UHGV virus genome: UHGV-1543656
Direction: 5' to 3' (one strand)
From: a virus
DNA length: 25,891 nucleotides
Translations under genes and position numbers: made by a program
The notes under the pieces: generated by a model
Told to the model about the DNA's origin: nothing
What the model saw: the letters and a program-made list of their open reading frames with translations, nothing else
Database searches by the model: none
In this document: one piece after another, positions 1-16,879 of the stretch
How the letters are laid out: each line of letters begins with the position of its first letter
How positions within the stretch are numbered: the stretch's first letter is position 1

Positions 1-52
1 ACAAACTCCCTTTAAAATGGCCGATGGCACCTGTCTATGATAGGTGGCAAAT

Positions 53-403
53 TCAGAAAAGAGAAGATTGCTGTGGAATAGCCGGAACTGCTCCGATCTC
101 TGGAAGCGTTTTACGTAAGTCTTCCCACAGGGTATGTACCAGTTCCGGGGCCTGGGCAATATCTGGCGTATGTAAAAAAAGATAAGGCGTAGTGGTCTGA
201 TGCCACTGTGCTAATTTTTGTAACCAGACCTGAAATAACTCCCGGTTTTGCGTCATATCATCACTACCGATAAAACGGATCAGTGGATTTTTCGCCGTCA
301 GTACAGCATGTACCGGAACTTTAGGTTTTTTTCGTTGAGCGTCGCGAATAGCTTCACTGTGTGGACGTGCTGCATGAACCGGGCGGCTGTCTAAAATCAT
401 CAA
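53..403 (-). pseudogene. yecE: 3' (C-terminal) fragment of a host DUF72-family gene, separated from its 5' part by the ~11.2 kb insertion
   Basis: Track ORF 53..403. Same strand as the 11579..11980 fragment. Joining the two across the AAAATCA core gives an in-frame read VNRVI-LDSRPVH. DUF72/yecE assignment is from memory of the VEGNTT-YALP motif and of yecE as a known lambdoid/Stx phage integration site; not searched. Confidence 0.6.
393..399. repeat. attL core (AAAATCA) of the serine-integrase element
   Basis: Junction read gtctAAAATCAtcaagg: host sequence to the left, element sequence to the right. Confidence 0.6.
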
Positions 404-415
404 GGTCTAAATACA

Positions 416-438
416 CTATGAGGTTGATTCCTAGAACA
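416..438. repeat. 23-bp repeat ctatgaggttgattcctagaaca, copy 1 (abuts attL)
   Basis: Its perfect reverse complement is at 767-789 and a degenerate third copy at 1173-1204. Confidence 0.7.
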
Positions 439-754
439 TACCTGTTAATAACAGGACATAAACAGGTTAGTACCTATGCAATTTAACGGTGTATTTATGC
501 GCTATCTATGCAATTCTACACAGATTCTATGCAGTATCAGTATAGTCTCTTTTTACCCTAACTTATTGAAATATATAGAGAATCTGTGAAGTCTCTTTTC
601 AGGGTAAACTGTATCGTGTTAGTCGTCCCTCTCTCGACTCCTAGAAAAGTGCTATATACAGGAGTATATAACGCTATTCATGCAGTTGGTCACCATACGT
701 TACAGTTGCAAGAGATAACAATCAGCTACGTGAAAGTTAGAAAGTGATGGTTAC

Positions 755-789
755 AGTTGATTCGGTTGTTCTAGGAATCAACCTCATAG
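755..789. repeat. Inverted copy of the 23-bp repeat, extended 5' by agttgattcggtt
   Basis: tgttctaggaatcaacctcatag is the exact reverse complement of 416-438. The related copy at 1173-1204 shares both ends (agttgattcggtt ... aacctcatag). Confidence 0.7.
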
Positions 790-1519
790 TTACCTTGTCA
801 AATCTTCGTAGTCCCTTCTTAAAAAATCACTTACAGACACCTTAATATCTATACAGATTTCATGTAGAACACGATTAGTGCGTAAAACAGCTATTATGTT
901 AAAAACGTACTGTATATGTATCAGTACTGATTTATAAGGGTTTTATGTATTTGAAGATAAGAGGCTATACAGCACCTTGAGAGCATGTCTTGTAAGTCAT
1001 TGATACATAAGGTCACAGAAGTTTGTGTCTGTTAAAGAGAAAACTGGGGAGGACTTCACAGGACTATAAAATGTTACAGCTATTGATAGGTTAAATCTTC
1101 TTGATAGATGCTGTGAAATGTGATGAAGGTTTTTTTGAGGTGGAGCTAACAGATGCTATGAAGAAAGTCAATAGTTGATTCGGTTTATCGAATAAACCTC
1201 ATAGATATTTTAAAATTCTGCAAAGGGGGTCACATAGCTGGTGTGACGGGTACTTAGCAGCTACAGACATCTGTCAGATATTTTCGAAGTTTTTTAGAAG
1301 GGGAATTTGAAGAGGGGCTACTACGATTTTATAAAAATTTTCAGAGTCTGAAAAGTTACTGTACAGATTTAATACAGATATCTTTAAAGTATCTGTAAAA
1401 ACTTTTAAGATAAAAGATAGATATCCCAGAAAGGATATCCGTTTAAAAAACCTGTTAAGTATCTCTTAAAAGAGAGTAAACCTTGTCAAGAGTGATTGCA
1501 ATAAAAAATTTTATTTCTT

Positions 1520-2182
1520 ATGTCAATTGAGCATATTTTAATCGGGAAGCATCATGGTGGTTCTGATGACTGGCGTACACCGTATCGTTTATTTCGTAAC
1601 CTGCATCGTGAATTTGGTTTTTCGATGGATGGTGCTGCAACTAAGCATGACGCATTGCTACCACGGTTCACCGATGATATCCACAATCAGTCATGGGTTG
1701 GTGAAAAGGTATTCTGTAACCCACCATACAGCGATATTCCGTCGTTCCTCTTAAAAGCGTCTGAATCAGATTTAGCGGTATTCCTGATACCGTACCGACC
1801 CCACACCACATACTGGCTTAAGCACATCTTCACAAACCCGCTTTGCCATGAAATCCGTATTCTTCATCGCGCAGTTAAATACCTTCCACCAGCAGGGCAT
1901 AACGGGCTTACTACTAGGTCACCGTTTGCTGCTGCAGTCGTTGTTTTTAAAAAAGAATCACGCAGGCATGAAATTACGCAGATGGTTTGCTGTGCTGACA
2001 CGCTATTACCGTTAACCATCATTAACCGTGGTGGACTAAGAGGAAGACCCACCATTTACCCACCTGAGACGCTCGACAGCTTCATAAAGCTATACAGGCA
2101 AGGAAAACCCATTAAGTGCATTGCAGATGCTCTCAGAATGCCTCTGAGCACGTCATACAGGATTGCTCAAAGGTTGGGCTAA
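1520..2182 (+). CDS. Phage-type N6-adenine DNA methyltransferase (Dam family) with C-terminal HTH
   Basis: DDWRTPYRLF...EFGFSMDGAAT...ALLPRF...FCNPPYS matches the catalytic NPPY motif and the upstream pattern of phage Dam methyltransferases. C-terminus IKCIADALRMPLSTSYRIAQRL looks like a resolvase-type HTH. Confidence 0.75.
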   Translation: MSIEHILIGKHHGGSDDWRTPYRLFRNLHREFGFSMDGAATKHDALLPRFTDDIHNQSWVGEKVFCNPPYSDIPSFLLKASESDLAVFLIPYRPHTTYWLKHIFTNPLCHEIRILHRAVKYLPPAGHNGLTTRSPFAAAVVVFKKESRRHEITQMVCCADTLLPLTIINRGGLRGRPTIYPPETLDSFIKLYRQGKPIKCIADALRMPLSTSYRIAQRLG

Positions 2183-2565
2183 AATTCTCATAAATATGGT
2201 CATTTACAAGACAGGCGATTCAGATATTAAGAAGTATTCCTGTGAACAATAAATGACCAATCAGTAATTATTCTGTGAAATAATTGTTGCAATTTATAAT
2301 CACACATGGTATAGTTTCATAGTGGGCTGATAAAAGAACTCAGAACATTAAGAGGTTACAACGTTGGGAGGCGTCAGGGTATTGACGGATTTTCACGGCC
2401 TCTTATTCAATCAAGGCTTTTCCTTTTGCTGTTAATACTCGCGTAATCACTTAGATTTCTGGGTTCCTTTATCAGTCCATCTTCTAATTAATTCACTCCC
2501 TCTGGGGTTGGTCACTATACGTGGTCAGCCCTTTCTTTGTTTTATTTTTAAAAAGGAAAATATAA

Positions 2566-3527
2566 TGGAAAAATTTCACATGTTTGATGACCGTATTTAT
2601 CAGATGACTAATGGCGTTAAAGCTGCCGACCGTATTATTTACACTGTCATGTTGAATGAACAAAAGTTTTATCACGATAAGGGGCAATATTATACCCCTT
2701 CATATGCTCATCTTGGTCAGTATGCTGGAATCACAAGAACATCCGTGATTGCATGTATGAAACGACTTGAGGCACATGGTTTAATCAAGAAAACTAACGT
2801 TGCAAGCAATCAGTGTGTTATTAAAGTTTATTCACTTGATGAAGTACCGGAAGTTTTAACAGAGCTTACAGCTAAGGAAGCCAGAAAGGCAAAGCTGGAG
2901 TCTAAAGTTACTCAGTCAGTCAAGAAAGATGACCCACTGAGTCAAAATTCTTTACCCACTGAGTTAAAATTTTTTACTCAGTCAGTCAAAATCTTTGACA
3001 CGTATAATAACAGTAATAACAAGAAAGAACTTATTAATAACAATAAAGAAGATGACTTTGAAGAAGAATCTCTTAAGAAGGGAGCTTCGCTCTGTGATTC
3101 ACATGAATGTGATTCTCTTGATATTGAAGAGGCTATTAAAGAGACTGTTAAAACATCTGACTTAGATGACCTTGATAGTGAAGCTACTAAAGAGGCTGTT
3201 AAAAAGGAAGATAAAATCTCTGATGTGAATGAAGTTAGTGACCAGCAAGATACACCTTGCCGCCTCGAATCAACTGATGATGAATTACCGGATGTTGACC
3301 TTGATGATGAAGAAGACCCTGAAGAGGAATTGAAACGTGAACAGCGTAAAGCAGAAATTAAAGAAAGATTCAGAAAGGCTAAGCTAAAGAACAGAATTGA
3401 TGAACTTGATGACTTTGATGATAGTGACGATGATGACTTTTCTTTCACACCAAAAAAGAAAACCCACACTGAACCGAAGAAAGAAAAAGTGAAAGTAAGA
3501 CGTATTTATGCTGGAGGTATGCGCTAA
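2566..3527 (+). CDS. Winged-helix DNA-binding protein (replication-initiator or regulator-like) with long acidic low-complexity C-terminal region
   Basis: Track ORF 2508..3527; start moved to the in-frame ATG at 2566 (MEKFHMF), which has an AAGGA-like RBS. N-terminus ...AGITRTSVIACMKRLEAHGLIKK resembles a wHTH. C-terminal ~180 aa are D/E-rich with K-rich stretches. Confidence 0.45.
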
Positions 3528-3817
3528 TGAAAGAATTTCACGGTGAAAAACGATACAAAGATTACCTGTTAAAGCGTTACAGCATTTCTCGTGAGGGTCA
3601 CCTTATGAAGGATACTTATGGGGAGGTTTACCGGATTCGACCGAAGAAAGAAGGGAGGGATTATTATTTCGTCGATGGTGTGACAGATTTAAAGATTGAC
3701 GCTTTGAGGTTTGCAGTGCTGTATCATTATGATATCTGGGATTCAGTCCACCAGCTACGATTAAAAGACGGTGACCCCGGTAATCTGAGGGCCACCAATA
3801 TCATCACAAAACGTTAG
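3527..3817 (+). CDS. Hypothetical protein, possibly HNH_3-like nuclease fold
   Basis: Start overlaps the upstream stop, suggesting translational coupling. YYFVDGV...VHQLRLKDGDPGNLRATN weakly resembles the HNH_3 / NUMOD-type pattern. Low certainty. Confidence 0.35.
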   Translation: MKEFHGEKRYKDYLLKRYSISREGHLMKDTYGEVYRIRPKKEGRDYYFVDGVTDLKIDALRFAVLYHYDIWDSVHQLRLKDGDPGNLRATNIITKR

Positions 3818-4071
3818 TTTGTTTTACCATCATCAATCGTAATTGTGATTTCATATTTGAAAAGCTTAATGCTGAAATTGAATCGTGTACTTTTGGCGAT
3901 AATCATTTTTAAAAGCTGATACACCAGAAGCACCAGAAACACAAAGCAACCTAAGCTTGCGAATCTGTGAGATTCAGCAATTGTTTCAAGAAAACCCATT
4001 AACTCCCCTTATTTATCAAAGGGAATGACCTGTATCAGCCCCTATAACCATATTAACATGTAAATGAGTTG

Positions 4072-4100
4072 TTGACAATATGTTAAATATATGTTAAGAT
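4072..4100 (+). promoter_or_regulatory. Sigma70-like promoter with a direct-repeat operator in the spacer
   Basis: TTGACA (4072-4077), 17-nt spacer, TAAGAT (4095-4100). The spacer carries the direct repeat atatgttaa / atatgttaa. Followed by RBS TAAGGAG (4121-4127) and ATG at 4136. Confidence 0.5.
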
Positions 4101-4135
4101 TGTAGTATGAGTAAGAGATTTAAGGAGATTTTACA

Positions 4136-4426
4136 ATGACTCACACAGTTACACGCCTTTTGCCAGAGGCATTTGAACGACTGGCAGCAATCAAAGCTAA
4201 ATATCCCGATATGAAGCACACAGCGCTTGTTGGAGAGCTTTTAAAAGAGTCGGTATCCCTGACCCCTTTCGATAACGTTAAGGGTGTTGCAGAGGGTTCT
4301 AAGGCCATCAGAATCACAACGGGCCAACTGGAACTACTCAAAGCACAGTCCGCAGTAGCAGGTTGCTCAATGATTCAGGTGTTGAGTGCTAAGGTCCATC
4401 AACTGGCGGATAAATTGGAGGTTTAA
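4136..4426 (+). CDS. Small regulator, ribbon-helix-helix-like
   Basis: Strong SD TAAGGAG. N-terminus TRLLPEAFERLAAIKAKYPDMKHTALVGELLKESV fits the beta-strand plus two helices pattern of RHH (CopG/Arc) proteins. Confidence 0.45.
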   Translation: MTHTVTRLLPEAFERLAAIKAKYPDMKHTALVGELLKESVSLTPFDNVKGVAEGSKAIRITTGQLELLKAQSAVAGCSMIQVLSAKVHQLADKLEV

Positions 4427-4647
4427 TGTGTTACAGGTTCCAATATTCCACACTTGGCAGCCACCTAATCAGACAGAATTTAGCAGATGCTGAATTTGAA
4501 GATGTGACCCTCAAAGCAAACAAACGATTAAAACCCTCTCAAATCCACCAGCTTAAACACGAATTAAAGCCACTGGTAATACTCGACTATAACGACCCTG
4601 AACAGCTTGAGCAGGGAATTAAGCTTATTTCTGAATGGGGTGCTTGA
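4426..4647 (+). CDS. Hypothetical protein
   Basis: ATG overlaps the upstream stop (TAATG); GGAGG sits 4 nt upstream. Confidence 0.5.
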   Translation: MCYRFQYSTLGSHLIRQNLADAEFEDVTLKANKRLKPSQIHQLKHELKPLVILDYNDPEQLEQGIKLISEWGA

Positions 4648-4862
4648 TGAAAACTATCACAGTACAACTTCAGACTAATAAAGCATTTCGTTATTTTGAA
4701 AACTTGCTTGAGTTATACGAAGGATGGGGAAGCATCCACGGCAAAGATGATATCTATCTTCACTTGTCAGCCCCTAACTATTCTCTGAAGGCTCCGGTTA
4801 AGCAAAGCTGGTTAAAAGACTACGGTCACCAGATGGGGCTATTAGTCTCAGACTTGAGCTAA
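4647..4862 (+). CDS. Hypothetical protein
   Basis: Track ORF 4635..4862; start moved to the in-frame ATG at about 4647 (MKTITVQ), where the start and the upstream stop overlap. Confidence 0.45.
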   Translation: MKTITVQLQTNKAFRYFENLLELYEGWGSIHGKDDIYLHLSAPNYSLKAPVKQSWLKDYGHQMGLLVSDLS

Positions 4863-5008
4863 AAACAGTAAAACATATCTCTCAGGCTTTACCAGACGAA
4901 TTCTAAGCGATTTTAAGCCCCTAATCAGGGTAACTTAGGGAATCGCCTTAAGTGGTCTAAAAAAGGGGTTAAAACGTCTTAGAATGCGATACAGGAAGGA
5001 TTTTAAAA

Positions 5009-5314
5009 ATGAATTATTCAATGCAAGTTATGGTTGACCAAGAAACTATGAATTGGCTTAATGACCTGAACAGGTCGGGCTTTAATATCTATTTCATGCA
5101 TTGTTTTGAAGCGTCAACGTATATTGACAAGCATATAATCAACGAAATTAAACTTGGTGACTTTGTTCATAAACTGGAAGTAACAGACCCAGACTACAAG
5201 AGATTTATCACAAGCGAATGCAACCGACTTGATTTAAGCCCGGAGCAATTATTGAAGCTGAATGTATTCTTGACCTATCAGAATGAATTAAACCCTTACA
5301 GTGAGGTGATGTAA
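5009..5314 (+). CDS. Hypothetical protein
   Basis: Track ORF with GGAAGGA-like RBS upstream. Confidence 0.5.
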   Translation: MNYSMQVMVDQETMNWLNDLNRSGFNIYFMHCFEASTYIDKHIINEIKLGDFVHKLEVTDPDYKRFITSECNRLDLSPEQLLKLNVFLTYQNELNPYSEVM

Positions 5315-5391
5315 TGACACTCGTTATTCTCTGGACGGTTTTAGGGCTATTTGTTGGTTGCTGGGTAGGTAATACGGTAAATAAGAATTAA
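5314..5391 (+). CDS. 25-aa hydrophobic peptide (MTLVILWTVLGLFVGCWVGNTVNKN), small membrane peptide
   Basis: Below the track length cut-off. ATG overlaps the upstream stop (TAATG) and has a GAGGTGA RBS 4 nt upstream. One predicted transmembrane helix with a polar tail. Confidence 0.45.
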   Translation: MTLVILWTVLGLFVGCWVGNTVNKN

Positions 5392-5415
5392 TGTTACCAA
5401 TCTGTTAAAAAGCTG

Positions 5416-5444
5416 TTGACAAATAACCTTAAGCATGACATAAT
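5416..5444 (+). promoter_or_regulatory. Sigma70-like promoter (TTGACA-17-CATAAT)
   Basis: TTGACA at 5416-5421 and CATAAT at 5439-5444 with a 17-nt spacer. Confidence 0.4.
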
Positions 5445-5450
5445 TTTAAT

Positions 5451-5645
5451 TATAGAGAGAATTGCTCTCTTATTTCTTTCAACAATTCCATCTACATCTA
5501 GGGATAGTTATTCTGAAAGGTGCAATGCTTTTCGCTACATGGCCTCTTATATAACCTGAGAGGTCATCTCGAAAAGTGCTTAATCATTCATTCATTGAAC
5601 CCTTTACAGCTTTGCCCTAATCATGATTAGGGCTTTCTTTAAGAG
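5451..5645 (+). ncRNA. Candidate small non-coding RNA, promoter to terminator with no ORF
   Basis: Starts just downstream of the promoter above. 5' hairpin agagag-aattg-ctctct at 5454-5470. Ends at the terminator 5614-5640. Longest internal ORF is under 10 codons. Confidence 0.25.
5614..5640 (+). terminator. Rho-independent terminator
   Basis: Perfect 20-bp palindrome gccctaatca/tgattagggc followed by TTTCTTT. Confidence 0.65.
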
Positions 5646-5886
5646 TTTTTAAACAGAACTTTTAAAGAAAGTTTTTCCTGAAACTTCGTTAACGTTATAA
5701 AGCAAACCTCCAAAGCCCTTCACAGATAAGGATGATTCCATGAATATCCGAATCACCTATGTTTAGGGCTTTTTCAGCTTTTAAAAAGCATACTTGGCAA
5801 ACCGCCTTTTAAGTCTCTTCTAAGTTTAGATAGGCTGTCAGGTGTGCTTTTTAAAAACTGAATATTACTTAGAAGAGGAAAATGAA

Positions 5887-6594
5887 ATGGAAAATCTATA
5901 TATTAACGGTAAAAAGATTGATAGCTTCGGTGACTGGTCACCACAGACTGAACATCCAGCTATCGCTATTCAGCGCAAAGAGCACGATGAAAGAATTGCA
6001 CTTGAGCAAGAGTTAAAGATGTCACCAAAGGAAATCATCTTTGTGACTCCTGAACCTCAAGAGATGCCTGATGTATGCAAAACTGAATCATTACTTGAGC
6101 TTGAGCGTGAATATTACCCACTACTGAAAGCACAAAGAATTAAACTTGATATTGCTTACGATGCGGTTAAGAACTTCGAAGAAACCTCGAAACCTTCAGA
6201 ATATGATATTGCTTACGAGATTAAGTCAAACCCGTTTATCTATTATGAAGGAAACTTTAATGATGGTTTTGGTACAGCGATTGAAGACGTTCCTAAAGTT
6301 CTTCAAAGTATCCCTGAAGGGTTCCGGTTAATTGATGTCAGACAAGCATTAAGGGGTTCTGGTCAATTTATTTTGACGACTGATAAAACAGATGAAGAGA
6401 TTCTTCAGTTAGCTGAAGCTAATTTGACTAAGCATTATTCCGGTAAACTGGATAAGTTAAAGCAAAAGCTTAAAAAAGAACTTGATAGCATGAAAGCGAT
6501 TATTAGTGACTATGAAACGCAGAAGAAGGTTGCTATGCAGGCTGATATTGAGCAGTTAACGAAGATTTCTCAGAAATACAGCAAAGCACTTTGA
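5887..6594 (+). CDS. Hypothetical protein
   Basis: Track ORF 5842..6594; start moved to the ATG at 5887 (MENLYING), which has an AGAGGAAA RBS. Confidence 0.55.
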   Translation: MENLYINGKKIDSFGDWSPQTEHPAIAIQRKEHDERIALEQELKMSPKEIIFVTPEPQEMPDVCKTESLLELEREYYPLLKAQRIKLDIAYDAVKNFEETSKPSEYDIAYEIKSNPFIYYEGNFNDGFGTAIEDVPKVLQSIPEGFRLIDVRQALRGSGQFILTTDKTDEEILQLAEANLTKHYSGKLDKLKQKLKKELDSMKAIISDYETQKKVAMQADIEQLTKISQKYSKAL

Positions 6595-6617
6595 TTATGA
6601 ATTAAAAGAGGTGATTA

Positions 6618-6827
6618 ATGTTTGAAGAACGTTTAGAGACTATTCGGTCTGTTTGTGAAAACTTAAAGTTACAAACTAAGCCAGCCTTAAGAATTAAAAC
6701 CAAACATCAAATTATCACCTCACGCAAACCAAAAACACGCAAGATTCCAAAGTGGTGTATCGACCGTATCCCTTCCGATGCTCAAATTATAGGTGAAACG
6801 GAACTACATTATCTTGTCAGGCATTAA
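6618..6827 (+). CDS. Small basic hypothetical protein
   Basis: Strong RBS AGAGGTGA just upstream of the ATG. Confidence 0.5.
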   Translation: MFEERLETIRSVCENLKLQTKPALRIKTKHQIITSRKPKTRKIPKWCIDRIPSDAQIIGETELHYLVRH

Positions 6828-6876
6828 AAAAGATTGGTTGGGTGTATGAGATAGGTTCTATCGAATCTATAACACG

Positions 6877-6918
6877 GGGAGAGATTATCGATATTATTCG
6901 GTAGTTTCTCCCTTTTTT
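6877..6918 (+). terminator. Terminator-like hairpin followed by a T6 run
   Basis: gggaga ... tctccc then tttttt. The loop is long, so this is uncertain. Confidence 0.35.
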
Positions 6919-6925
6919 GTATGTG

Positions 6926-6996
6926 TGCTACGTGAAATCTTCTGAACAGATATACCCACCAAAAATTATTTTTTACGTAGCTCACGCTTAACAGAG
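6926..6996 (+). promoter_or_regulatory. Conserved 71-nt cis-element, copy A, upstream of the tape-measure-domain gene
   Basis: Terminal blocks tgctacgtgaaatct and cacgcttaacagag are identical to copy B at 9071-9141, with the same 57-nt offset between blocks. Internal blocks atacccac and ttacgta are shared. Confidence 0.55.
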
Positions 6997-7010
6997 GTGA
7001 AATATGAACA

Positions 7011-9059
7011 ATGGCACAATTTAAAGTTGATAGTTTTATCGTTGAGCTAGGCTTCAGCGAGAACGTTATTAAGGGCTTGCAAAGAGTTGAAAAGGCAGCT
7101 TTGCAGTCAGCACAAAGAATTGAACGTAATTTGAATAGAGCGTTTAAGGTCGATACCAAGCAACTTGACAGCAATCTGACAAGTTCTTTAGGGCAACTTG
7201 AAAGGAAGTTTAATAAGACCTTTGACAAGATTGAGCAGCGTCTTAAAAACACTAGAGCGTTTAAGATTAAAACGGAAATTGAGGATACTTTAAAGCCACT
7301 TAGACAGCCAAGACAGCCACGAATTAGCGGCAACAGAGCAATCACAGCGGCTTATTCAGCGAATATGTCTAAGCTGAAAGGTCTTAACCCAATTGTCGAG
7401 AAATACATTAAGAGTCAGTTTTACGCATTAAGTAGTAAATCCAAGACACTTGGAAACGAAGCTTTTAATCGTGAGTTAGCAAAGTTAAATCAAAATCTAC
7501 GTGAAACACTTTCTAAGTTTAACAAGACCACCAGCAAAAATAATCACAGTGAAAATGCTTCAAATGGTTTAGATGTACTAGCTTCAAGTGCAATTAAAGC
7601 GGGTACGGCTATTTACACTTTTCAAAGTGCTTTGGCAGCTTATCAGCGAGTAATGGAAATTGGTTTACAGCGTGCAAGTGCTGAACGTTCAATTGATTTC
7701 GTATTTGATAAAGATGCAGGTCAGGTAAAAGAGTTCACAAAGTCATTAGCTCAAACAACGGGTTTAGATATCGCTGAACTGCAATCACAGTTTGCTGGTT
7801 TCGGTGCTTCAGCTAAAGAGTCTATGGGTATTCAAGGTTCTGAAGAACTTTTTAGAAGTATGATTGGCTATTCTCGTCTGATGGGTCGAAGTGAAGAAGA
7901 GATTAAGCGAGCACTGACAGCATTATCACAGATGGCTGGTAAGGGTCAGGTTATGGCTGAAGAGCTTAAGGGGCAACTAGCTGAAGCTGTTCCTGGTATG
8001 GTTCAGGTATTCGCTAAAGCAACCGGAAAGACTGAACAGGAATTATTTGATGCCATGAAGAAGGGGGCTTTAAAATCTGCCGATACTCTTCAGAAGGTCA
8101 CTCAGGAACTGAATAGACAAATCACCGCTAAAGGTGGCTGGAAAGCTATTTCAGAAAGTACACAGGCACAATTAGGGAACCTGAAAAACTCTTGGAATAC
8201 CACGCTTGATAGTATCTTCAGAGGTTCTGAAAGTGGTCTGCAAGATTTTACAAGAAGCTTAACAACGCTTTTAAACGCTCTTGGTGGAAGTGGTAAAAGT
8301 CTTGGTGAATCTCTTGGTAGCTTGATGACTGATATGTCACATGGTGTCGATAGTCTGGCCGATATTAGTTACAAGGTGCGAGCGTTCTTTGATGAGGTGA
8401 CATTAGCTTATCGTGGTTTAACCGATGAACAAAAGAAAGTTGTTGATGCTTTAGGTTCTGGCTTGATTAATAGTTTAAAAGTCTTGGCTGGTGTTATTGC
8501 TGTAAATAAAGTTGTTGGTGTAACCAGAAGTATTTACGGGCTTATGACTGCTATCACAAGATTAGGTCAGGTTGCTGATACTACAGCGGATAACGTGAAT
8601 AGAAAGAATGGGAAACCATCAAGACTGAATCTTGGGAATATGCTATTAGCTGGTAGCGCTCTCTATGCAGGTTATGAAAGACTAGCCTCTACACCTGAAC
8701 GAATGGAAGCACAAGCTAAATTACCAGAGTTAGCTAAAGAATCTGGACTTAAGCCAGTATTTACTATGGACGATGTGAAAGGTTGGTTTAATAGTGCAGC
8801 TATGAATCTTGCTAACTTCCAGCATCCAGAATTAATCACCATGAGACAAGATGCGGCATTAACGAATACGGATATCCAAAGCCTGAGAGATGAAATTAGT
8901 GCTTTGAGCAAACGTATTCAGGAGCCTGTGAAAGTTTCACTTGGTGGTGAAGTTGCCATTAAACCAGATGAAACCAGCTTTATGACCTTTAGCAGTAATA
9001 TCTACGACCAATACGCAGAAGCTACGCTATTAAGTTCATCATTCCCAGAAGATGATTGA
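7011..9059 (+). CDS. Protein with phage tail tape-measure-type domain
   Basis: 682 aa. Central segment SEEEIKRALTALSQMAGKGQVMAEELKGQLAEAVPGMVQVFAKATGKTEQELFDAMKKGALKSADTLQKV matches the tape-measure domain signature as I recall it. N-terminal part is predicted coiled coil. Confidence 0.55.
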   Translation: MAQFKVDSFIVELGFSENVIKGLQRVEKAALQSAQRIERNLNRAFKVDTKQLDSNLTSSLGQLERKFNKTFDKIEQRLKNTRAFKIKTEIEDTLKPLRQPRQPRISGNRAITAAYSANMSKLKGLNPIVEKYIKSQFYALSSKSKTLGNEAFNRELAKLNQNLRETLSKFNKTTSKNNHSENASNGLDVLASSAIKAGTAIYTFQSALAAYQRVMEIGLQRASAERSIDFVFDKDAGQVKEFTKSLAQTTGLDIAELQSQFAGFGASAKESMGIQGSEELFRSMIGYSRLMGRSEEEIKRALTALSQMAGKGQVMAEELKGQLAEAVPGMVQVFAKATGKTEQELFDAMKKGALKSADTLQKVTQELNRQITAKGGWKAISESTQAQLGNLKNSWNTTLDSIFRGSESGLQDFTRSLTTLLNALGGSGKSLGESLGSLMTDMSHGVDSLADISYKVRAFFDEVTLAYRGLTDEQKKVVDALGSGLINSLKVLAGVIAVNKVVGVTRSIYGLMTAITRLGQVADTTADNVNRKNGKPSRLNLGNMLLAGSALYAGYERLASTPERMEAQAKLPELAKESGLKPVFTMDDVKGWFNSAAMNLANFQHPELITMRQDAALTNTDIQSLRDEISALSKRIQEPVKVSLGGEVAIKPDETSFMTFSSNIYDQYAEATLLSSSFPEDD

Positions 9060-9070
9060 TAATAGTCGAA

Positions 9071-9141
9071 TGCTACGTGAAATCTGTAAAGCTAATACCC
9101 ACACTGAAAAATAGAATTTACGTACAACACGCTTAACAGAG
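9071..9141 (+). promoter_or_regulatory. Conserved 71-nt cis-element, copy B, upstream of the 264-aa gene
   Basis: See copy A. The 11-mer GCTACGTGAAA also occurs at 726-736. Confidence 0.55.
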
Positions 9142-9216
9142 AAAACACTTATATATCAAAGGCTTGGTTAAAAATGATTAAAATACACTAAGCCTTTGAA
9201 ATCAAAGGGGAATTTA

Positions 9217-9990
9217 ATGATTTACTCTAACCAAATCAAATATAGTGGCAAAGACGGCATCTATTTCCACTTAAGAGATAATGTAGATGCCTTCTTAACC
9301 TTATCAGCAACTGAAAACATGGAATTTGATAGTCCTATGCAGGTGACTACACAGAACATGCAATCAGGACAAACCGTTACAGATAATGTGCAAAGAGCAC
9401 CCAGAACAATCACTATTAGTGGTGTCGTTGTAGTTGGCTATGAAGGAAGCTTATTATTAACTCGTCAGGGTCAATTAGTAGAAAACTTCATCGACACTCT
9501 TGAAAGCTGGCGTGACCAGAAACAGATTATTTCGGTCATCTGTAAAGACGGAATTAAAATTGACGATTCCATTATTACGAGTTTTAAAGCCTCTAAAGAT
9601 GTGGGGATTTCAAACGGTCTAAGAATCCAGCTAACTTTTCAGGAAATTAACTTCAAAGCTATTGTTGGTCAGACTGATATTTCTGCTGCAACTGGAAAGA
9701 CTGCTACCACGAATGATGGTGGTGCAACTTCTAAGAAGAACACTGGTAACACTACGACAAGTCTAGGTAATGGTATGTTGCTGTGTCAGGAGCTATATAA
9801 TCGCTCTACGAGTGAACTCACTAATGAGCAACTTCAAGCCCGTATCAATTGTGGTAAAAGTGTCAAAGTTGAGAATGGAAAAAGCACCTTCTCAGATGCC
9901 GCTAATGCGCAAGCTTCAAAGGTGCTTAATAATGCTGGTACAGGTAGTACTTTGAAGAAATTTTCTGTGAATCCTAACAAGCGATTCTGA
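9217..9990 (+). CDS. Hypothetical protein, possibly virion or tail-tip associated
   Basis: Track ORF 9196..9990; start moved to the ATG at 9217 (MIYSNQ), which has an AAGGGG RBS. Beta-rich N-terminal half and a Thr/Gly/Asn-rich linker. Functional guess rests only on its position after the tape-measure-domain gene. Confidence 0.4.
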
Positions 9991-10004
9991 CGATAGAATC
10001 TCAA

Positions 10005-11528
10005 CTATATGATAACCTCATCAACATCTATCAACCCCCTCTCAGTGACTTCAGAAAGCGACTGTATAGCCTCTGTAACGTCCTCTGAGGGGGTTTCTGT
10101 TATTGGTAGGGTGATTGACTTACTATTGTGAAAAGTTACTTTACAGCGACGTTTAGCAGTATTTAAAATGACCTCTTTAACAGCACTTTTGATTATCAGT
10201 TGTGCTTCAATCCTTCCCGCCTTTGTAGTCAAGTCACAATCAGACAAACAACCAACATCAATAGATTTAAGGCGTTGTGTCTCCTTCTCGATATCCGCAT
10301 CAACCTGTGATAGCTCACCTTTTAACTGTTTTAGTTTGCTGGTAATAGCGGACAAGTCTTCAATTTCAAGTGATAGCTGTACCAGCTTTTCAATATTGCT
10401 TGAGATGTGTTCACGGTGTAGCTTCAGTGTGTCTATGGTATTCGTCATATCGCTATCAAATCGGTCTATACGGGATAGCAGGGCAAGCAATGTACCATCG
10501 GTTTGCTTACGTGAAAGTCCTTTAGCACTACAACGGTTTTCATTACGAAGAGGACAACGATAAATCCCGTTTCTTGTATCGCTAAAGCCTGTGATAATCA
10601 AAGCATGACCACATTCAGAACAACGGATAACACCTTTGAAAAGATTCACACTCAATGGTTTATCTGAAGCAGGCTTTCTTCCATAACGAGAATATGATAG
10701 TTGCTGGACTTTGTAGAAATCAGTCTCAGGGATGATAGGGGGGAAATAACCAGCTATCTCCTCACAGCCTTTAGGTGTGAAGTAACCAATTACAGAGCGA
10801 TTTTTCAGAAGGTCTTGCACTGAGGTTTGACCAAACTTACCTGCTTTGTACTGGTTAAGTGTCTGGTGACCTTCATCATTAAGAGTCCTGACAATCTCCC
10901 AAATAGACTTACCCTCTAACCGTAATTGAAAGCACCTCTTCACAGTTTCTACCTTCTCAGGTATCACAGAGAAGGTCTTACGGTCATCATTAAGCTTAAG
11001 CCATGCAGGACAACGCTTATAAATCTTGATACCGGCTTTAGCAGCTTCTTTCTTTGCATCCCATGCAGCTTGGATACGTTCAGATTTACGCAAACTCTCC
11101 TCATGCGACCGCTGCATTATCAAAATGCTTTTAATCAGAGCTAACGGGTCTTTTAAGCTTTCCTTTGTGTAATGTTCACCATCGGACAAGGTGACCACAT
11201 CTACACCAGAGCGAAGAATGTTTCTGAGTAGCTCACTTGCTTGGTCTACATCTTGACGTGACAGACGGTCAAGAGATTCTATCAAGAGCGTATCACCAGC
11301 TTTAACAAGCCCTTTCTCGATAGCGGTTAAAAAGTCACCTAAGCCACCTTTCAAGTGCTTACCAGTGAACCCACTCACCCCCAAATCACGAAAAGATAAA
11401 TCTTGGTCAAGGTAGTACTCAGGATGAGCCTTAAGCCAGTCATTAACCATCTTAGACTGTCGGCGTAATGAATCACCTCGGGATTGCTTCTCAGATGAAA
11501 ACCTGATGTAAGAAATGGCACGTTTCAT
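10005..11528 (-). CDS. Large serine recombinase (integrase)
   Basis: N-terminal resolvase-type catalytic domain (YIRFSSEKQ with the catalytic Ser, then SLDRLSR). Followed by a recombinase domain, a Cys-rich zinc ribbon (CSECGH...YRC) and a C-terminal coiled coil. Sits next to attR. Confidence 0.9.
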   Translation of the reverse strand: MKRAISYIRFSSEKQSRGDSLRRQSKMVNDWLKAHPEYYLDQDLSFRDLGVSGFTGKHLKGGLGDFLTAIEKGLVKAGDTLLIESLDRLSRQDVDQASELLRNILRSGVDVVTLSDGEHYTKESLKDPLALIKSILIMQRSHEESLRKSERIQAAWDAKKEAAKAGIKIYKRCPAWLKLNDDRKTFSVIPEKVETVKRCFQLRLEGKSIWEIVRTLNDEGHQTLNQYKAGKFGQTSVQDLLKNRSVIGYFTPKGCEEIAGYFPPIIPETDFYKVQQLSYSRYGRKPASDKPLSVNLFKGVIRCSECGHALIITGFSDTRNGIYRCPLRNENRCSAKGLSRKQTDGTLLALLSRIDRFDSDMTNTIDTLKLHREHISSNIEKLVQLSLEIEDLSAITSKLKQLKGELSQVDADIEKETQRLKSIDVGCLSDCDLTTKAGRIEAQLIIKSAVKEVILNTAKRRCKVTFHNSKSITLPITETPSEDVTEAIQSLSEVTERGLIDVDEVII

Positions 11529-11578
11529 TGTTCACCTCAAAACTGATGCCCTAGATTGTATCGTTTTAGATGGTGTAT

Positions 11579-11980
11579 TTAAACGTGTCTAATAAAAATC
11601 ACCCGATTAACGCCGCGCTGATGTAAACCGCGATTAAGCGTTTGTTCCTCTTCCCCTTTGGCGAAAAACTGTGGATGGCGGACTTCCACCCCATAATTAA
11701 ATTCACCGGGAAGAGAATCGAGAAAATGCCAAAGCGCAGGCAGCTCCCGTGGGCCGAATGTGGCAGGCAGTTGCAGCCAGTATTGTCCAATGCGCGGAGC
11801 CAACGGTGACATGCGGGTCAAAAATTCAGTCACTAAATCATCGCAATGCCGTAATGCTGCCTGATGCGAAATGGTCGCCGGAAACTTAAAACAGAAGCGG
11901 AAGTCATCTGTGGTCTGCTCACGCCAGCGCAGGACAACCTCGGGTTTCGGCAGGGCATAAAGCGTGGTGTTACCCTCCAC
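11579..11980 (-). pseudogene. yecE: 5'-proximal fragment of the host DUF72-family gene, truncated at its 5' end by the prophage and at its 3' end by the serine-integrase element
   Basis: Track ORF starts at a GTG. The in-frame upstream sequence has no ATG back to a stop at about 12038. NCVEGNTTLYALP matches the conserved N-terminal motif of DUF72 proteins. It continues in frame into 53..403 once the insertion is removed. Confidence 0.6.
11595..11601. repeat. attR core (AAAATCA) of the serine-integrase element
   Basis: Junction read aataAAAATCAcccgatt: element sequence to the left, host sequence to the right. Confidence 0.6.
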
Positions 11981-12006
11981 GCAGTTAACATGACGGGTAT
12001 TAAGGA

Positions 12007-13320
12007 TTAACTTACTGATTTTAATAAGCCTCTGGTGTCACTTTGGTGACTATGGGGCATCATTGGGACATAATCTGTCAGCTTCTGATTCAGCATTGCG
12101 ATCTGTTCTGCATTGCTGTCAGTCATCCATGCTCCGTATACATTGAATACCATCTGGGCACTTGCATGGCCCATCTGGCTGGCAATGAAGCTTGGGTTTG
12201 CTCCGGCAGATAATGACCAGCACGCATAAGTGTGTCGTGACTGGTATGCCTTTCGATGCCTGATCCCTGCACGCTTAATGGCTGTTTCCCATGAGTCACC
12301 TACAGAATCGACTTTGTAGACAAAACCTACCTGTTCGCTTTTTCTAACCACTTGAGGGTTAAACACGAAAGTACATTCATGGTTCACTGAACGTCCATAT
12401 TCACGTAGTTGCACCTTGATGTTGTACTGCTTACCCAGTCTTGTCATTTCAGCCTGATTTTTCAGGACACTGATAGCGGGCTGGATAAGGTGCACAACCC
12501 TGTTTGTGCTTGCTTCAGTTTTCGGTAGAGTGAACTCACCAAGTTTCGTATAATTGCGCCTGATGGTAATTGTTCCTGCCTTCAGATCGATATCTTCCCA
12601 GGCCAGGGAGACCAGTTCACCGTGACGCATTCCTGTGTACACAGCCAATGACCACAGGTTTTTCGTCTGCTGATGTCGGCAAGCATCTATCAGGCGAATA
12701 AATTCGTCACGAGTTAGCGGATCTGGCTCTGCCCTGGCTCTTTTAAGAGGCTTAATTCCCTGGAAGGGATTTGCTTCTAAGTAACCGTGATCTGCAGCAA
12801 ACTGAAACATTCCAGCGATTGTCGTCATGTAATAATTTACAGTAACGACGCTCCGTCCTTTTGCTGCTGCTTTGTTTTTCGTTGAATTCTGATACCCGGT
12901 CAGCAAATCTTTCCTGATATACAGCAATTCCTCTTTGGTTACCGATGACACCAGTTTACTGCCTCCAATTTTCGGAACCATCGTTCTTGCAACGGATTCA
13001 TAGCGATTGAATGCATTTGCAGAGATTTCCATTCGTTTCAGATCCAGCCACTTTTCTTCAAGTTCCTTCACCGTAATTTCTTTTTTACTTACCCCAAAAG
13101 CCTGAAGGTTGGGGGAGTCAGGGAACTGTGCAGCATAATCAAAGCTTCCTGTGCGGATGGCAAAACATACTGATGTCCGCAGTTCCCCGGCGATCTTCCT
13201 GTTCTTGGCAGTGTCAGGGACACCAAGATTTTCCCTGACACGTTTACCTTTAAAATTAAACCAGATGCGTAATGTGCCGCCGTGGTTTTCGACGCCTGTT
13301 GGATATTTGACTTTATCCAT
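12007..13320 (-). CDS. int: Tyrosine-type phage integrase
   Basis: C-terminal catalytic region HRKAYQSRHTYACWSL...GHASAQMVFNVYGAWM carries the R..HxxR..Y signature. Located at the prophage end next to xis. Confidence 0.9.
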   Translation of the reverse strand: MDKVKYPTGVENHGGTLRIWFNFKGKRVRENLGVPDTAKNRKIAGELRTSVCFAIRTGSFDYAAQFPDSPNLQAFGVSKKEITVKELEEKWLDLKRMEISANAFNRYESVARTMVPKIGGSKLVSSVTKEELLYIRKDLLTGYQNSTKNKAAAKGRSVVTVNYYMTTIAGMFQFAADHGYLEANPFQGIKPLKRARAEPDPLTRDEFIRLIDACRHQQTKNLWSLAVYTGMRHGELVSLAWEDIDLKAGTITIRRNYTKLGEFTLPKTEASTNRVVHLIQPAISVLKNQAEMTRLGKQYNIKVQLREYGRSVNHECTFVFNPQVVRKSEQVGFVYKVDSVGDSWETAIKRAGIRHRKAYQSRHTYACWSLSAGANPSFIASQMGHASAQMVFNVYGAWMTDSNAEQIAMLNQKLTDYVPMMPHSHQSDTRGLLKSVS

Positions 13321-13375
13321 CGATACCTCCAGACGCCCAAGAGCGATACGAGCTTACATATTTCATGATATTAAA

Positions 13376-13612
13376 TCACCTGGGTTGTTTGTTTTTCATT
13401 GAGGCGACCCAGGCATCTATTGCTTTTCTGTTATACATACATTCACTGGAAGGCTTTGGATTACCGTCTGGTGATACGTGAATATACTCTCTTCCAACCA
13501 TCCAGCATTCTTTCCGGGCCCGAAGAATTGTGCCTGGTTTGAGCCCGGTAATTGCGATAAGAACGCTTTCACAAACCCATTCATTGGGAGCCAGTTGAAT
13601 CACATTGCCCAT
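13376..13612 (-). CDS. xis: Excisionase-like protein
   Basis: 78 aa, immediately upstream of int. WVCESVLIAITGLKPGTILRARKECWMVGREY resembles the small excisionase family of E. coli lambdoid prophages. Confidence 0.7.
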   Translation of the reverse strand: MGNVIQLAPNEWVCESVLIAITGLKPGTILRARKECWMVGREYIHVSPDGNPKPSSECMYNRKAIDAWVASMKNKQPR

Positions 13613-13620
13613 GTATTACC

Positions 13621-13767
13621 TCACACAACACTCAGCCCACGGCAGTGGCACCACACTTCAAACATTCGTTTCACAATTTCACGACAGTAGAAGCCGTCAA
13701 CATCTCGCGTCAGGTCATAGCGATTGCCGTAACGCTGGCGCACCCATAGCTCAAACGCTTTATTCAT
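13621..13767 (-). CDS. 48-aa Cys-rich small protein (MNKAFELWVRQRYGNRYDLTRDVDGFYCREIVKRMFEVWCHCRGLSVV)
   Basis: Below the track cut-off. AAGGAAG RBS 6 nt upstream. Its stop overlaps the xis RBS (GTGTGAGGTAATACATG). Confidence 0.4.
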   Translation of the reverse strand: MNKAFELWVRQRYGNRYDLTRDVDGFYCREIVKRMFEVWCHCRGLSVV

Positions 13768-13770
13768 TCT

Positions 13771-14010
13771 TTACTTCCTTTTCATGGCCCGTAATTTTTT
13801 CAGATGAGCCTCCTGCTCTGTTTCTGCCAGAATTTGTCGGTATTCCTGGTGATCAATCCGTTCAAACAGTTCATTGAAATCGTTTATTTTTACTGACTGT
13901 GTTCGCCCATCAATTCTTCTGTACAACACAGTGTTGTTTATGCAGCGAATAATTATTACCGGGTAACCGGCACTGTCGGTATACAGTTGTCCCTGATTAA
14001 TCAAAGCGAA
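13771..14010 (-). CDS. Hypothetical protein
   Basis: Track ORF 13771..14136; start moved to the internal ATG (MFALINQ) with an AGGAG RBS, which removes the overlap with the upstream gene. Confidence 0.5.
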   Translation of the reverse strand, partial: FALINQGQLYTDSAGYPVIIIRCINNTVLYRRIDGRTQSVKINDFNELFERIDHQEYRQILAETEQEAHLKKLRAMKRK

Positions 14011-14044
14011 CATTTTTTCTCCTGCTCTCTGAATAGTGAGAACT

Positions 14045-14350
14045 TCAGAGCCGTATGTTTGTAGCGGGTTCAATACTGATAATTTCTGCTGAGATAAGCA
14101 TCCCGGCAAGCCAGAGCTCTCCGGACAGGTCTTCATCCTGGCATGTCAGTTCGCCAATATTAATGGTGGCCATGATATCTGTTTCCCCTGTACGCTCATC
14201 CTCGACTTCTTCATAAGGCAGCGTTGCGTACAGGCTTTCAATAGCGCAACTGATAACATCGAGTCCGGTCAGGTTGCCACCGACAGTGACTTCGAATGTT
14301 TCGCGGTATTCCCATTGCCCGAAAGTTAATCGAACGGTTTGTTTCGCCAT
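14045..14350 (-). CDS. Acidic hypothetical protein
   Basis: Track ORF 14045..14386; start is likely the internal ATG at 14350 (MAKQTV). Confidence 0.45.
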   Translation of the reverse strand: MAKQTVRLTFGQWEYRETFEVTVGGNLTGLDVISCAIESLYATLPYEEVEDERTGETDIMATINIGELTCQDEDLSGELWLAGMLISAEIISIEPATNIRL

Positions 14351-14457
14351 GCGTCCGCATGACGTCAGATTTGGGTCATAGTTCATTATTTGCGGTTGAG
14401 TATTATGAGTGTTTATCTGCTTTTCCCTTAGCCCGACGGCCTGCCGGGCATATTAAG

Positions 14458-15285
14458 TTATTTAACCTGGATAAATGGTGTATTGGCACCGCTGGTCATG
14501 TATTGCGGCAGCGTGCCGTTCCATTTATTGATGGCTTCCAGCTCCATAACACCGGGGTTCTGACGCAGAGCTTCACCGCGTAAACGAATAGCATCGGCTT
14601 CAGCCTGGGCTTTTGTGCGAATCGCATCAGCCTGTCCGGCAGCTTCCGCGCGCAACATGTTGGCTTCCGCTTCGCGCTGTTTTACTTCCTGCTCGCGTTG
14701 CAGAGTTTTCTGGTTCGCCGTGACTTTGGCATTAATGCTGTCGATAACAGTAGGCGGGTACTCCGGCTTACCCACATATGAGAGGCTTATTACCTGAATA
14801 CCGATGGGCGTCATTTCTTCCTGAATGTCTTTAAGAGCTGCATCCAGCAGCTCAGACTTGCCGCCGTCGATAAATTTGTCGGTGGTCATTTTGCTGGCCA
14901 GTCGGTTGAGTGCGTCGGCTATCTTCTGGCGCAGGTCGGTGTCGGTAATGTCGTCCACGCCTTTGCGGTAGGTCTGAAAGACTGTGGTAACTTTGGATGG
15001 ATCAACCTTGTAGGCTACTCCGATGTGGTAACCAATGGTTGTTCCATCGCTCATCTGGAAACTGAATGGATCATCGTAGGTCTTCATCTGCTTAAAGGTC
15101 GGGAAGATATAAACTTCAGTGTTCCAGCCTGTCCAGTAGCGACCAACACCGACCACTTCACCGACGCCTTTGTCGTCGCCAAGTTTGTTGACTTTGATGC
15201 CCACATTACCAGGCTCAACACGATCACAACCGACAAGGCCAATGGCAGGCAGAACAATGGCTAAAGAAAAAATAATTTTTTTCAT
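14458..15285 (-). CDS. SPFH/band-7 (prohibitin-family) lipoprotein
   Basis: Signal peptide with lipobox LVGC. SPFH-like core beginning VEPGNVGIKV, followed by an Ala/Glu/Arg-rich helical tail. AAGGA RBS. Confidence 0.75.
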   Translation of the reverse strand: MKKIIFSLAIVLPAIGLVGCDRVEPGNVGIKVNKLGDDKGVGEVVGVGRYWTGWNTEVYIFPTFKQMKTYDDPFSFQMSDGTTIGYHIGVAYKVDPSKVTTVFQTYRKGVDDITDTDLRQKIADALNRLASKMTTDKFIDGGKSELLDAALKDIQEEMTPIGIQVISLSYVGKPEYPPTVIDSINAKVTANQKTLQREQEVKQREAEANMLRAEAAGQADAIRTKAQAEADAIRLRGEALRQNPGVMELEAINKWNGTLPQYMTSGANTPFIQVK

Positions 15286-15470: not shown

Positions 15471-15530
15471 GGTCCTCCTGCTGTATTCAGCTTGCCTTAT
15501 TTAATTGCGTCATGGTTAATTTCGTTTACG

Positions 15531-16684: not shown

Positions 16685-16687
16685 TTG

Positions 16688-16801: not shown

Positions 16802-16879
16802 AATAAATCCTCCTGTGGATTAAGATTGTAACAATCCCCGGCGATAAAACCGCAATAAACGTTCAGAGCATATTTGTTG

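Follow-up and report, generated by a model that had tools for sequence, protein, structure and literature searches.

Two neighbouring attachment sites in Escherichia coli yecE, filled independently by a lambdoid prophage and by a probable satellite or parasite of Felix O1-like phages

The stretch of DNA analyzed here, which we call the window, comprises 25,891 nucleotides of UHGV virus genome UHGV-1543656 and carries the Escherichia coli gene yecE (a DUF72 gene) interrupted by two mobile elements: a lambdoid prophage and an 11.2-kb element that we refer to as the small element. We conclude that two attachment (att) sites lying 376 bp apart within yecE were filled independently, and that the small element is most likely a satellite or parasite of virulent Felixounaviruses; we place the probability of this reading at about 0.85. 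A more specific version of it, in which the element belongs to an undescribed and widespread family of satellites that resemble the PLEs of Vibrio cholerae, parasitise virulent Felix O1-like phages and build chimeric tails, seems to us evenly balanced. At yecE alone, members of the family occur in no fewer than 278 of 5,426 complete E. coli genomes; others occupy different sites or are found in Salmonella and Shigella. The double occupancy that first drew attention to the locus is a matter of ordinary chance: two site-specific integrations took place independently, and the site of one of them is already well known.

Throughout its first 12.1 kb, the window matches E. coli JNEC-KY173 (NZ_AP045169.1) at essentially 100% identity; it is a close relative of that strain and a distinct genome, with two differences in the small element. 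The host gene lies on the minus strand, flanked by yecN, to the left of the window, and by yecD. Its 3′ fragment (53–399, minus strand; codons ∼158–272 including the stop codon, with yecN adjoining on the left) aligns to positions 1–347 of the intact 819-bp yecE of strain DH1, in plus-strand numbering, at 98.3% identity. The middle fragment (11602–11988, minus strand; codons ∼29–158) lies between the two integrase genes and, taken with the recombination cores on either side (11595–12000), aligns to DH1 yecE 341–746 at 97.3% identity. In JNEC-KY173, the first 96 bp of the gene lie beyond the other end of the prophage, where they adjoin yecD, and correspond to DH1 yecE 724–819 (99.0%). The overlaps between these three pieces are the duplicated recombination cores; yecE is complete, but it has been split into three by two elements.

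As a preliminary description of this DNA had proposed, the two fragments within the window tile a single orthologue, both aligning collinearly to intact DH1 yecE, and the flanking open reading frame (ORF) is of host origin, being K-12-type yecE between yecN and yecD. The occupants are likewise two unrelated mobile elements in one host gene, the prophage with a tyrosine integrase and an excisionase and the small element with a large serine recombinase. The accompanying statement that the prophage truncates the 5′-end of yecE holds for the interruption but not for the loss, since the 5′-end has been displaced by 41,042 bp to a position next to yecD. Within the window no in-frame ATG precedes the NCVEGNTT motif, as stated there, and the first in-frame start codon is the GTG at 11980. 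The excision interval had to be corrected: because the 7-bp core AAAATCA is duplicated at both junctions, removal of 400–11594, as initially suggested, leaves seven extra bases and breaks the frame, whereas removal of 400–11601 (equivalently 393–11594) restores ...GTG ATT TTA GAC... (V158, I159, L160, D).

The small element occupies 400–11601 (plus strand; 11,202 bp counting one copy of the core) and has a G+C content of ∼38%, compared with ∼50% in its flanks. The left copy of AAAATCA is at 393–399 and its duplicate at 11595–11601, placing the core within yecE codons 158–160, 376 bp from the prophage site. The empty site can be read directly in strain 09-02E, in which the prophage is present and the small element absent: this strain is 100% identical to window positions 1–399 and 11602–12900, and its attB reads CTGTCTAAAATCACCCGATT. 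Insertion at the same nucleotide with the same core is seen in five family members of 10,977–11,501 bp, which come from strains that are not related to one another (human, chicken, quail and bovine O111:H8), while their interiors are mosaic and 87–93% identical. Identical junctions around mosaic interiors therefore point to repeated site-specific integration and not to one inherited insertion.

The right end of the small element encodes a 507-residue large serine recombinase (10005–11528, minus strand), with Resolvase (PF00239, 1.6e-20), Recombinase (PF07508, 8.6e-15) and Zn_ribbon_recom (PF13408, 3.5e-7) domains and a match to the integrase family phrog_95 (6.5e-77). Joining the inner ends of the element reconstructs an attP of ∼46 bp, GTGTATTTAAACGTGTCTAATAAAAATCATCAAGGTCTAAATACAC, with the junction AATAAAAATCATCAAGGTCT and perfect 9-bp terminal inverted repeats whose centre lies on the core; a dyad-symmetric attP centred on the core is typical of serine integrases. 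The enzyme shares with large serine integrases of the phiC31/Bxb1 type the Resolvase–Recombinase–zinc-ribbon layout, the short core, the ∼46-bp dyad attP and insertion inside a coding gene, whereas CcrA and XisF are only distant relatives, with NCBIfam scores far under the cut-offs. No candidate for a recombination directionality factor was found among the small ORFs, such factors being too diverse for the libraries used.

The window holds the left 13.9 kb of the prophage (11989–25891, plus strand), which continues past the window and is 41,042 bp long in JNEC-KY173. Its attL (11978–12000) contains an exact 11-bp core, CACGCAGTTAA, at 11978–11988, with an imperfect extension to ∼23 bp, and a three-way alignment of attB, attL and attR places this core at both prophage ends inside yecE, at codons 29–32. 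The genes for the tyrosine integrase (12007–13320, minus strand; an ORF annotated as a tyrosine-type recombinase/integrase) and the excisionase (13376–13612, minus strand; annotated as an excisionase family protein) sit at the yecE-proximal end, beside attL. The site agrees with earlier reports: yecE is among the protein-coding genes disrupted by prophage integration (PMC3603311), the core CAYGCAGTTAA has been published for Shiga toxin (Stx) phages at yecE in O26:H11 (PMC5592225), an 11-nt duplication at yecE was described for the lambda-like prophage PP_SE11-5 of strain SE11 (PMC2608844) and a 21-bp att at yecE for Stx2 phages of O145:H28 (PMC8112680). The prophage half of the finding is thus already known biology.

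To place the double occupancy in a population context, we counted junctions of each element, alone or together, in 5,426 complete E. coli genomes, in every one of which at least part of the yecE–yecD region was detected. The small-element/yecE junction was present in 278 genomes and the prophage-integrase/yecE junction in 507, the latter a lower bound as the counts rest on megablast matches to this integrase family; both junctions lay on one collinear stretch in 16 genomes, and an 801-bp segment spanning both sites was uninterrupted in 4,639. The two elements account for 769 of the 787 interrupted alleles, and ∼18 are unclassified. The gene is conserved and evidently dispensable. Double occupancy was expected in 26.0 genomes against the 16 observed (odds ratio 0.58; P(X≥16) = 0.99, P(X≤16) = 0.018, Fisher two-sided p = 0.034, uncorrected for phylogeny), and since phylogeny is ignored, we take these statistics to show a lack of enrichment, not a genuine deficit.

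These counts bear directly on the suggestion, made when the locus was first described, that it is either a hot spot or a place where the small element targets prophage-adjacent DNA. That the small element seeks out such DNA, or depends on the lambdoid prophage, might be supposed from the 376 bp that separate the two here, and from the IMG/VR collection, in which 9/9 contigs with this recombinase also hold neighbouring lambdoid DNA. The IMG/VR pattern is a detection bias, however, because the collection records only regions called viral, so that the small element enters it only where a prophage call runs across it; among complete genomes 262 of the 278 yecE-inserted elements (94%) have no prophage there, with yecD following directly (for instance in L002, L010 and L011), while co-occupancy falls under the chance expectation. 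Moreover, it is the sequence of yecE that defines the insertion point, and the element has nothing in common with the lambdoid phage. One family member (L009; NZ_CP027140.1, 5685–17144) carries a recombinase only 33% identical to that of the window and is inserted between yciI and tonB; the target is therefore determined by the recombinase allele and not by a prophage next door. Across the population, the idea that the element targets prophage-adjacent DNA is refuted, and dependence of the small element on the prophage is scarcely credible. A hot spot exists in the sense of two separate sequence-defined att sites, each served by its own recombinase, but not in any broader sense. Read-through from the prophage integrase gene as the driver of serine recombinase expression was also considered and set aside: the recombinase gene has a promoter-like site of its own at 11583–11555, and co-occupancy is not enriched.

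Several strains, including 09-02E, share the window's prophage-bearing yecE allele exactly and lack the small element, and the window's variant of the element has no close relative but that of JNEC-KY173; judged by these comparisons, the prophage-bearing allele probably came first and the small element entered later, although precise loss of the small element from these relatives, instead of later entry, is possible. The 16 doubly occupied junctions fall into ∼10 identity classes (86–100%), and double occupancy therefore arose several times with different partners. Homologous recombination or transduction might instead have brought in the doubly occupied allele of the window as one block from another strain. 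Exchange of chromosomal segments comes readily to E. coli, several strains are doubly occupied, and the 21 differences from JNEC-KY173 clustered in the prophage integrase gene (12265–12523) are typical of recombination. Yet the combination of element and prophage variants differs among doubly occupied alleles, as the identity classes indicate, 09-02E has flanks and a prophage end identical to those of the window around an empty serine-recombinase site, and a transferred block would still require two independent integrations in some ancestor. We consider block acquisition distinctly unlikely.

What the small element might be is suggested by two adjacent tail genes. The first encodes a 682-residue tape measure protein (TMP; 7011–9059, plus strand; PF20155, E = 3e-20; phrog_4036, 2e-77) homologous to gp017, the TMP of the Felixounavirus Bas63, whose virion structure has been solved (PDB 9NDY_F, E = 2e-63). 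The second encodes a 257-residue, Dit-like tube initiator (9217–9990, plus strand; PF21821, E = 2.5e-20) homologous to Bas63 gp018 (PDB 9NDY_A, E = 2e-129). Compared with phage garuso, the first 45 codons of the TMP gene are 79% identical at the DNA level, but the whole protein is only 27% identical and shorter, at 682 versus 735 residues. The tube initiator gene is much closer: over 181 codons (9232–9775) its DNA identity to garuso gp119 is 93.4%, with 33 synonymous differences against 3 non-synonymous ones, and this stretch is 93–95% identical in 212 phage records, nearly all of them from Felix O1-like phages of Escherichia and Salmonella. The synonymous divergence (dS) is 0.34, and the copies were therefore not recently exchanged; the non-synonymous divergence (dN) is 0.007, so that dN/dS is ∼0.02. 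On this measure the tube initiator is under strong purifying selection and the protein is almost invariant, which argues that the partners of the element's protein are those of the phage protein.

The conservation is confined to particular parts of the two proteins. The tube-like domain of the tube initiator has ∼99% protein identity to that of virulent Felixounaviruses, whereas the C-terminal ∼75 residues have just ∼41%. Across 14 family members, identity to garuso is 74–96% in the tube-like N-domain and 30–42% in the C-terminal extension of the tube initiator, and it is 54–74% in the first 50 residues and 25–29% in the remainder of the TMP, with TMP lengths of 682–726 residues in the family against 735 in garuso. 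In Bas63, the transition from the three-fold hub to the six-fold tube is made by a hexamer of the tube initiator, whose C-terminal extension of ∼100 residues traverses the baseplate, and the C-terminus of the TMP touches the puncturing device and hub (PMC12609058). By analogy with that structure, the small element appears to keep the tube-facing surfaces and to replace the baseplate-facing ones.

No other ORF of the small element resembles garuso, but a non-coding stretch located 60 nt 5′ of the element's first gene (1381–1459, plus strand) is Ounavirinae-like and holds a hairpin. It is 88% identical over 58 nt to an unannotated intergenic sequence of garuso and matches 253 phage records, of which all but one (Staphylococcus phage SA1) are named for enterobacterial hosts or for Felixounavirus. 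Among the matches listed, all are to Ounavirinae-type phages (Shigella, Citrobacter), at 81–88% identity and with no annotated feature. The hairpin (GGATATCC...GGATATC) scores as terminator-like on the minus strand, and the stretch could be a captured regulatory or packaging signal. A second candidate signal, the motif CTRYACAG, which occurs at the left end of the small element and in a large non-coding region of garuso, was rejected as a packaging or replication signal since its occurrences are not distinctive.

The mechanism that we propose is as follows. The lambdoid phage integrated at codons 29–32 of yecE with its tyrosine integrase and excisionase, and the small element at codons 158–160 through its large serine recombinase acting on AAAATCA within the dyad-symmetric attP. 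The small element would live as a helper-dependent satellite of virulent Felixounaviruses, or failing that as their parasite, and would replicate from its own initiator. On infection by such a phage, it would supply its own TMP and tube initiator, and the tube, sheath, baseplate and head would come from the phage, mixing the two sets of tail proteins in the manner shown experimentally for the Vibrio PLE and its helper ICP1.

The gene content of the small element is consistent with this proposal: within 400–11601 there is no gene set for an autonomous virion, while an integrase gene and a replication-initiator-like gene are present. Specifically, no capsid, portal, terminase, sheath, tube or lysis gene was found in this interval by the ORF list, Pfam, PHROGs or NCBIfam. 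The initiator-like protein (2565–3527, plus strand) has a helix-turn-helix (HTH) domain and an acidic C-terminal half, matches PHROG 8102, 428, 678 and 270 (E = 3e-11 to 1e-6) and has a weak DnaD_N match; it had no tblastn match in 50,697 phage records. Its alleles are just 32–100% identical across the family, suggesting a swappable replication module.

Several observations weigh against the satellite interpretation. Resemblance to the proposed helper is limited to two genes and one short non-coding stretch. The 86-kb headful capsid of that helper is mismatched in size to an 11-kb element genome, and the element yielded no candidate for a packaging signal, a directionality factor, a capsid-size factor or a regulator that senses the helper. 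Metagenome contigs of element length end in yecE and so represent the integrated form and not circles. As for the independence of the two insertions, the apparent deficit of double occupancy (p ∼0.02–0.03) may stem from sampling or clonality, and the two elements may yet interact weakly, whether positively or negatively. One of the element-length contigs (L023, Logan SRR31670500, 11,654 bp) consists of one element with ∼30 nt of yecE on each side. We examined it as a possible circular excised form and rejected this, as yecE is at both ends with no terminal overlap; it implies that the sample holds yecE alleles both with and without the element, either because strains are mixed or because the element excises.

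The lack of excised forms among such contigs, together with the presence of only two virion genes and of many small ORFs of unassigned function, might equally be expected if the small element were an inert, decaying remnant of a temperate phage. A decaying remnant, however, would not be expected to keep its size (11.0–11.5 kb), gene order and intact ORFs across hundreds of genomes, with exact junctions and an intact recombinase. Nor does decay agree with the exchange of initiator and recombinase modules among members, one of which sits at another chromosomal site, or with the strong purifying selection on the tube initiator. The homologous phages are, besides, virulent, and no temperate relatives that carry these genes are known. 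We therefore regard the remnant explanation as unlikely.

A less easily dismissed alternative, though still an improbable one, is that the small element is an unpackaged defence island whose decoy TMP and tube initiator poison tail assembly in infecting Felixounaviruses. The pattern of conservation described above would suit a decoy, since the conserved parts are those expected to contact the tube and chaperone partners, and the parts that dock to the baseplate, by analogy with Bas63 (PMC12609058), namely the C-terminal extension of the tube initiator and the C-terminus of the TMP, have diverged. Interference with tail assembly is also an established defence strategy (PMC11364771, PMC10884400), and Rta of PLE11 is a further example. 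A defence island would have no need, however, of its own replication initiator or of a site-specific integrase with several target specificities, and within subgroups of the family the diverged parts are themselves conserved, pointing to an alternative structure that works and not to a defective one. The two roles are also compatible, as PLE does both, and a pure defence role by decoy tail proteins or a mixed role is possible.

Taking the small element as a satellite, its closest functional precedent, by analogy of gene content, is PLE, the V. cholerae satellite of ICP1. Both are islands with a large serine recombinase, their own replication initiator and swappable replication modules; both carry a partial tail module in which a TMP shorter than the helper's and a baseplate- or tube-proximal protein follow a small ORF; and the helper, putative in the present case, is a virulent myophage in both. 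PLEs encode a tail assembly chaperone (TAC), a TMP and a baseplate hub protein, and their chimeric tails are ∼10 nm shorter than those of the phage (PMC12987554). In the small element, the TMP and tube initiator genes are adjacent, and the place of the chaperone in a TAC–TMP(–BhuB) module is taken by a 69-residue ORF directly 5′ of the TMP gene (6618–6827, plus strand), a chaperone candidate by position, which had no family or PDB match. Unlike PLE, the small element is 11 kb long, resides in E. coli and has a Felixounavirus as its putative helper, and one domain of its tube initiator shares ∼99% identity with the helper protein, compared with 41% between PLE BhuB and its ICP1 counterpart. No Pfam match to RepA_N, the PLE-type initiator domain, was obtained for 2565–3527 at E ≤ 0.01. 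Other satellites, too, have putative tmp genes according to the authors of the PLE study (Mathur, Boyd et al., Nature 2026, PMC12987554).

A second group for comparison is that of Barth et al., who described ∼224 putative E. coli satellites with TMP, baseplate-hub and capsid genes and a tyrosine integrase, located at thrW or a lysR gene (PMC10448857). These satellites are 10–14 kb long, with a replication initiator, a TMP, a baseplate protein beside the integrase and often a small serine recombinase, in an order comparable to that of the small element. However, they have a major capsid and a decoration protein and a tyrosine integrase, whereas the small element has no capsid-like protein. There was no tblastn or blastn similarity between the small element and a satellite of this type (L006), none of three sample sequences from Table S6 of that study matched the window's element, any match being to the Barth-type family, and strain C2 carries one Barth-type satellite and one member of the small-element family at different loci. 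In contrast to the Odn-type case of Barth et al., no sign of phage-encoded anti-satellite nucleases bearing the DNA-binding domain of the initiator was seen in the 50,697 phage records. The hallmarks of PICIs, cf-PICIs and P4-like satellites (a tyrosine integrase, alpA, pri-rep and the P4 alpha primase) were absent from the ORFs of 400–11601 in searches with Pfam, PHROGs and NCBIfam, as were capsid-remodelling or capsid-forming genes and terS. On present evidence, which is that of sequence comparison, the small element is best described as PLE-like, and we do not assign it to the PLE, Barth-type, PICI or P4 families. Searches of the literature on yecE insertions and on Felixounavirus satellites turned up no account of it, and it probably represents a new family of satellite-like parasites of Felix O1-type phages.

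Members of this family vary in several modules. The closest relative of the window's element is that of JNEC-KY173, and the next best are ∼91–93% identical; identity across the family ranges over 48–91% for the TMP, 24–91% for a conserved 235-residue protein and 45–100% for the 69-residue ORF. The element with a divergent recombinase between yciI and tonB suggests that the family swaps integrases and hence targets. A further member (L024) has another recombinase, of 532 residues, and different element ends. When one genome per species was scanned for the recombinase, the sole match was a 548-bp contaminant contig in a ‘Mycobacterium’ assembly. An HNH_3 endonuclease gene lies between the replication and tail modules in L024 (4376–4663) and L027 (3734–4021) and is absent from the window's variant. 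In L012, from the enterohaemorrhagic E. coli O111:H8 strain 99.1145, yecE is doubly occupied, the methylase gene of the element is truncated and the prophage has a different tyrosine integrase allele.

The left 1.1 kb of the small element contains no ORF. Within it, 415–790 is bounded by a perfect 24-nt inverted repeat (415–438 and 767–790), of which a third, partial copy is found at 1190–1204, and the motif CTATGAGG(T/A)TGATT starts 16 nt inside the left junction and is kept in L002, L010, L011 and L012. The repeat may be a protein-binding site, with a recombinase accessory protein, the initiator or a repressor as candidates for its ligand. Two alternative modules occupy this end of the family's elements, represented by window positions 694–1200 on the one hand and by L011 1312–2232 and L012 1293–2209 on the other. 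Many members encode a 189-residue small serine recombinase of the resolvase/invertase type there; in the window's variant, L010 and L002, it is replaced by an unrelated ORF-less segment of ∼500 bp.

Among the remaining genes of the small element, a Dam-type DNA N6-adenine methyltransferase with a C-terminal HTH domain (1520–2182, plus strand; PF05869, E = 7e-16; phrog_111) is recorded by PADLOC as an orphan methyltransferase, and PADLOC found no known defence system. The 235-residue protein (5887–6594, plus strand) has a long predicted C-terminal helix and no match in Pfam, PHROG, NCBIfam or PADLOC, nor by tblastn in the 50,697 phage records; its 3,073 homologues are from E. coli, Salmonella, Shigella and E. 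fergusonii. The label ‘transposase’ given to it at NCBI is without domain support and probably wrong. A single-sequence AlphaFold2 model of it (predicted local distance difference test score 55, predicted template modelling score 0.26) was too poor for a fold search. Several further small ORFs have no assigned function, and no RNA family was found by Rfam at E ≤ 0.1 in 1–12100.

Beyond its integration genes, the prophage is lambda-like in its order of repressor, replication, Q, lysis, terminase, head, tail and J genes, as read from the deposited annotation of JNEC-KY173. The early part includes a LexA-family repressor, Rha regulators, replication genes with a DnaB-type helicase and the Q antiterminator; the later part includes lysis genes, a P27-family small terminase, an HK97-type head and a lambda-type tail with J and Lom. 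The gene occupied, the core CA(C/T)GCAGTTAA, the yecE-proximal integrase and excisionase and the gene order are all shared with the Stx and lambdoid prophages of yecE, but unlike yecE Stx phages such as those of O26:H11 and O145:H28, the window's prophage has no stx genes: stxA and stxB are absent from the Q–holin interval in the annotation of the closest genome. The prophage is an stx-less relative of the yecE-type Stx phages. That interval (JNEC-KY173 2267358–2268197; L004 8459–9298) contains a truncated DNA methyltransferase gene, a tRNA-Ile, two tRNA-Arg genes and a truncated hypothetical gene. The early-left region encodes an SPFH-domain protein and a ParE-family toxin-like protein (14458–15285 and 15920–16138), which are possible accessory or defence genes. 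The differences between the window and JNEC-KY173 are clustered, with 21 in the 260 bp of the integrase gene mentioned above and 13 in 146 bp at 25721–25866, and look like short recombination patches between related prophages.

The double occupancy is itself of practical value only, and the small element matters more. Screens that score yecE as occupied, whether by polymerase chain reaction or in silico, as a sign of an Stx or lambdoid prophage are misled in ∼5% of E. coli genomes, and yecE-based typing of Stx phages in strains such as O111:H8 99.1145 would register two insertions. Prophage-calling pipelines merge the two elements, as in 9/9 of the IMG/VR calls. If the small element is indeed a Felixounavirus satellite, the PLE–ICP1 system would gain a tractable counterpart in E. 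coli, and the element would be one of the natural factors that make bacteria resistant to biocontrol and therapy phages. It would further yield a new serine integrase whose defined site, of 7-bp core, lies in a conserved, dispensable gene. The remodelling of tails by satellites, so far shown only for the Vibrio PLE and ICP1, would then extend to E. coli and to a group of phages in wide use for typing, biocontrol and therapy.

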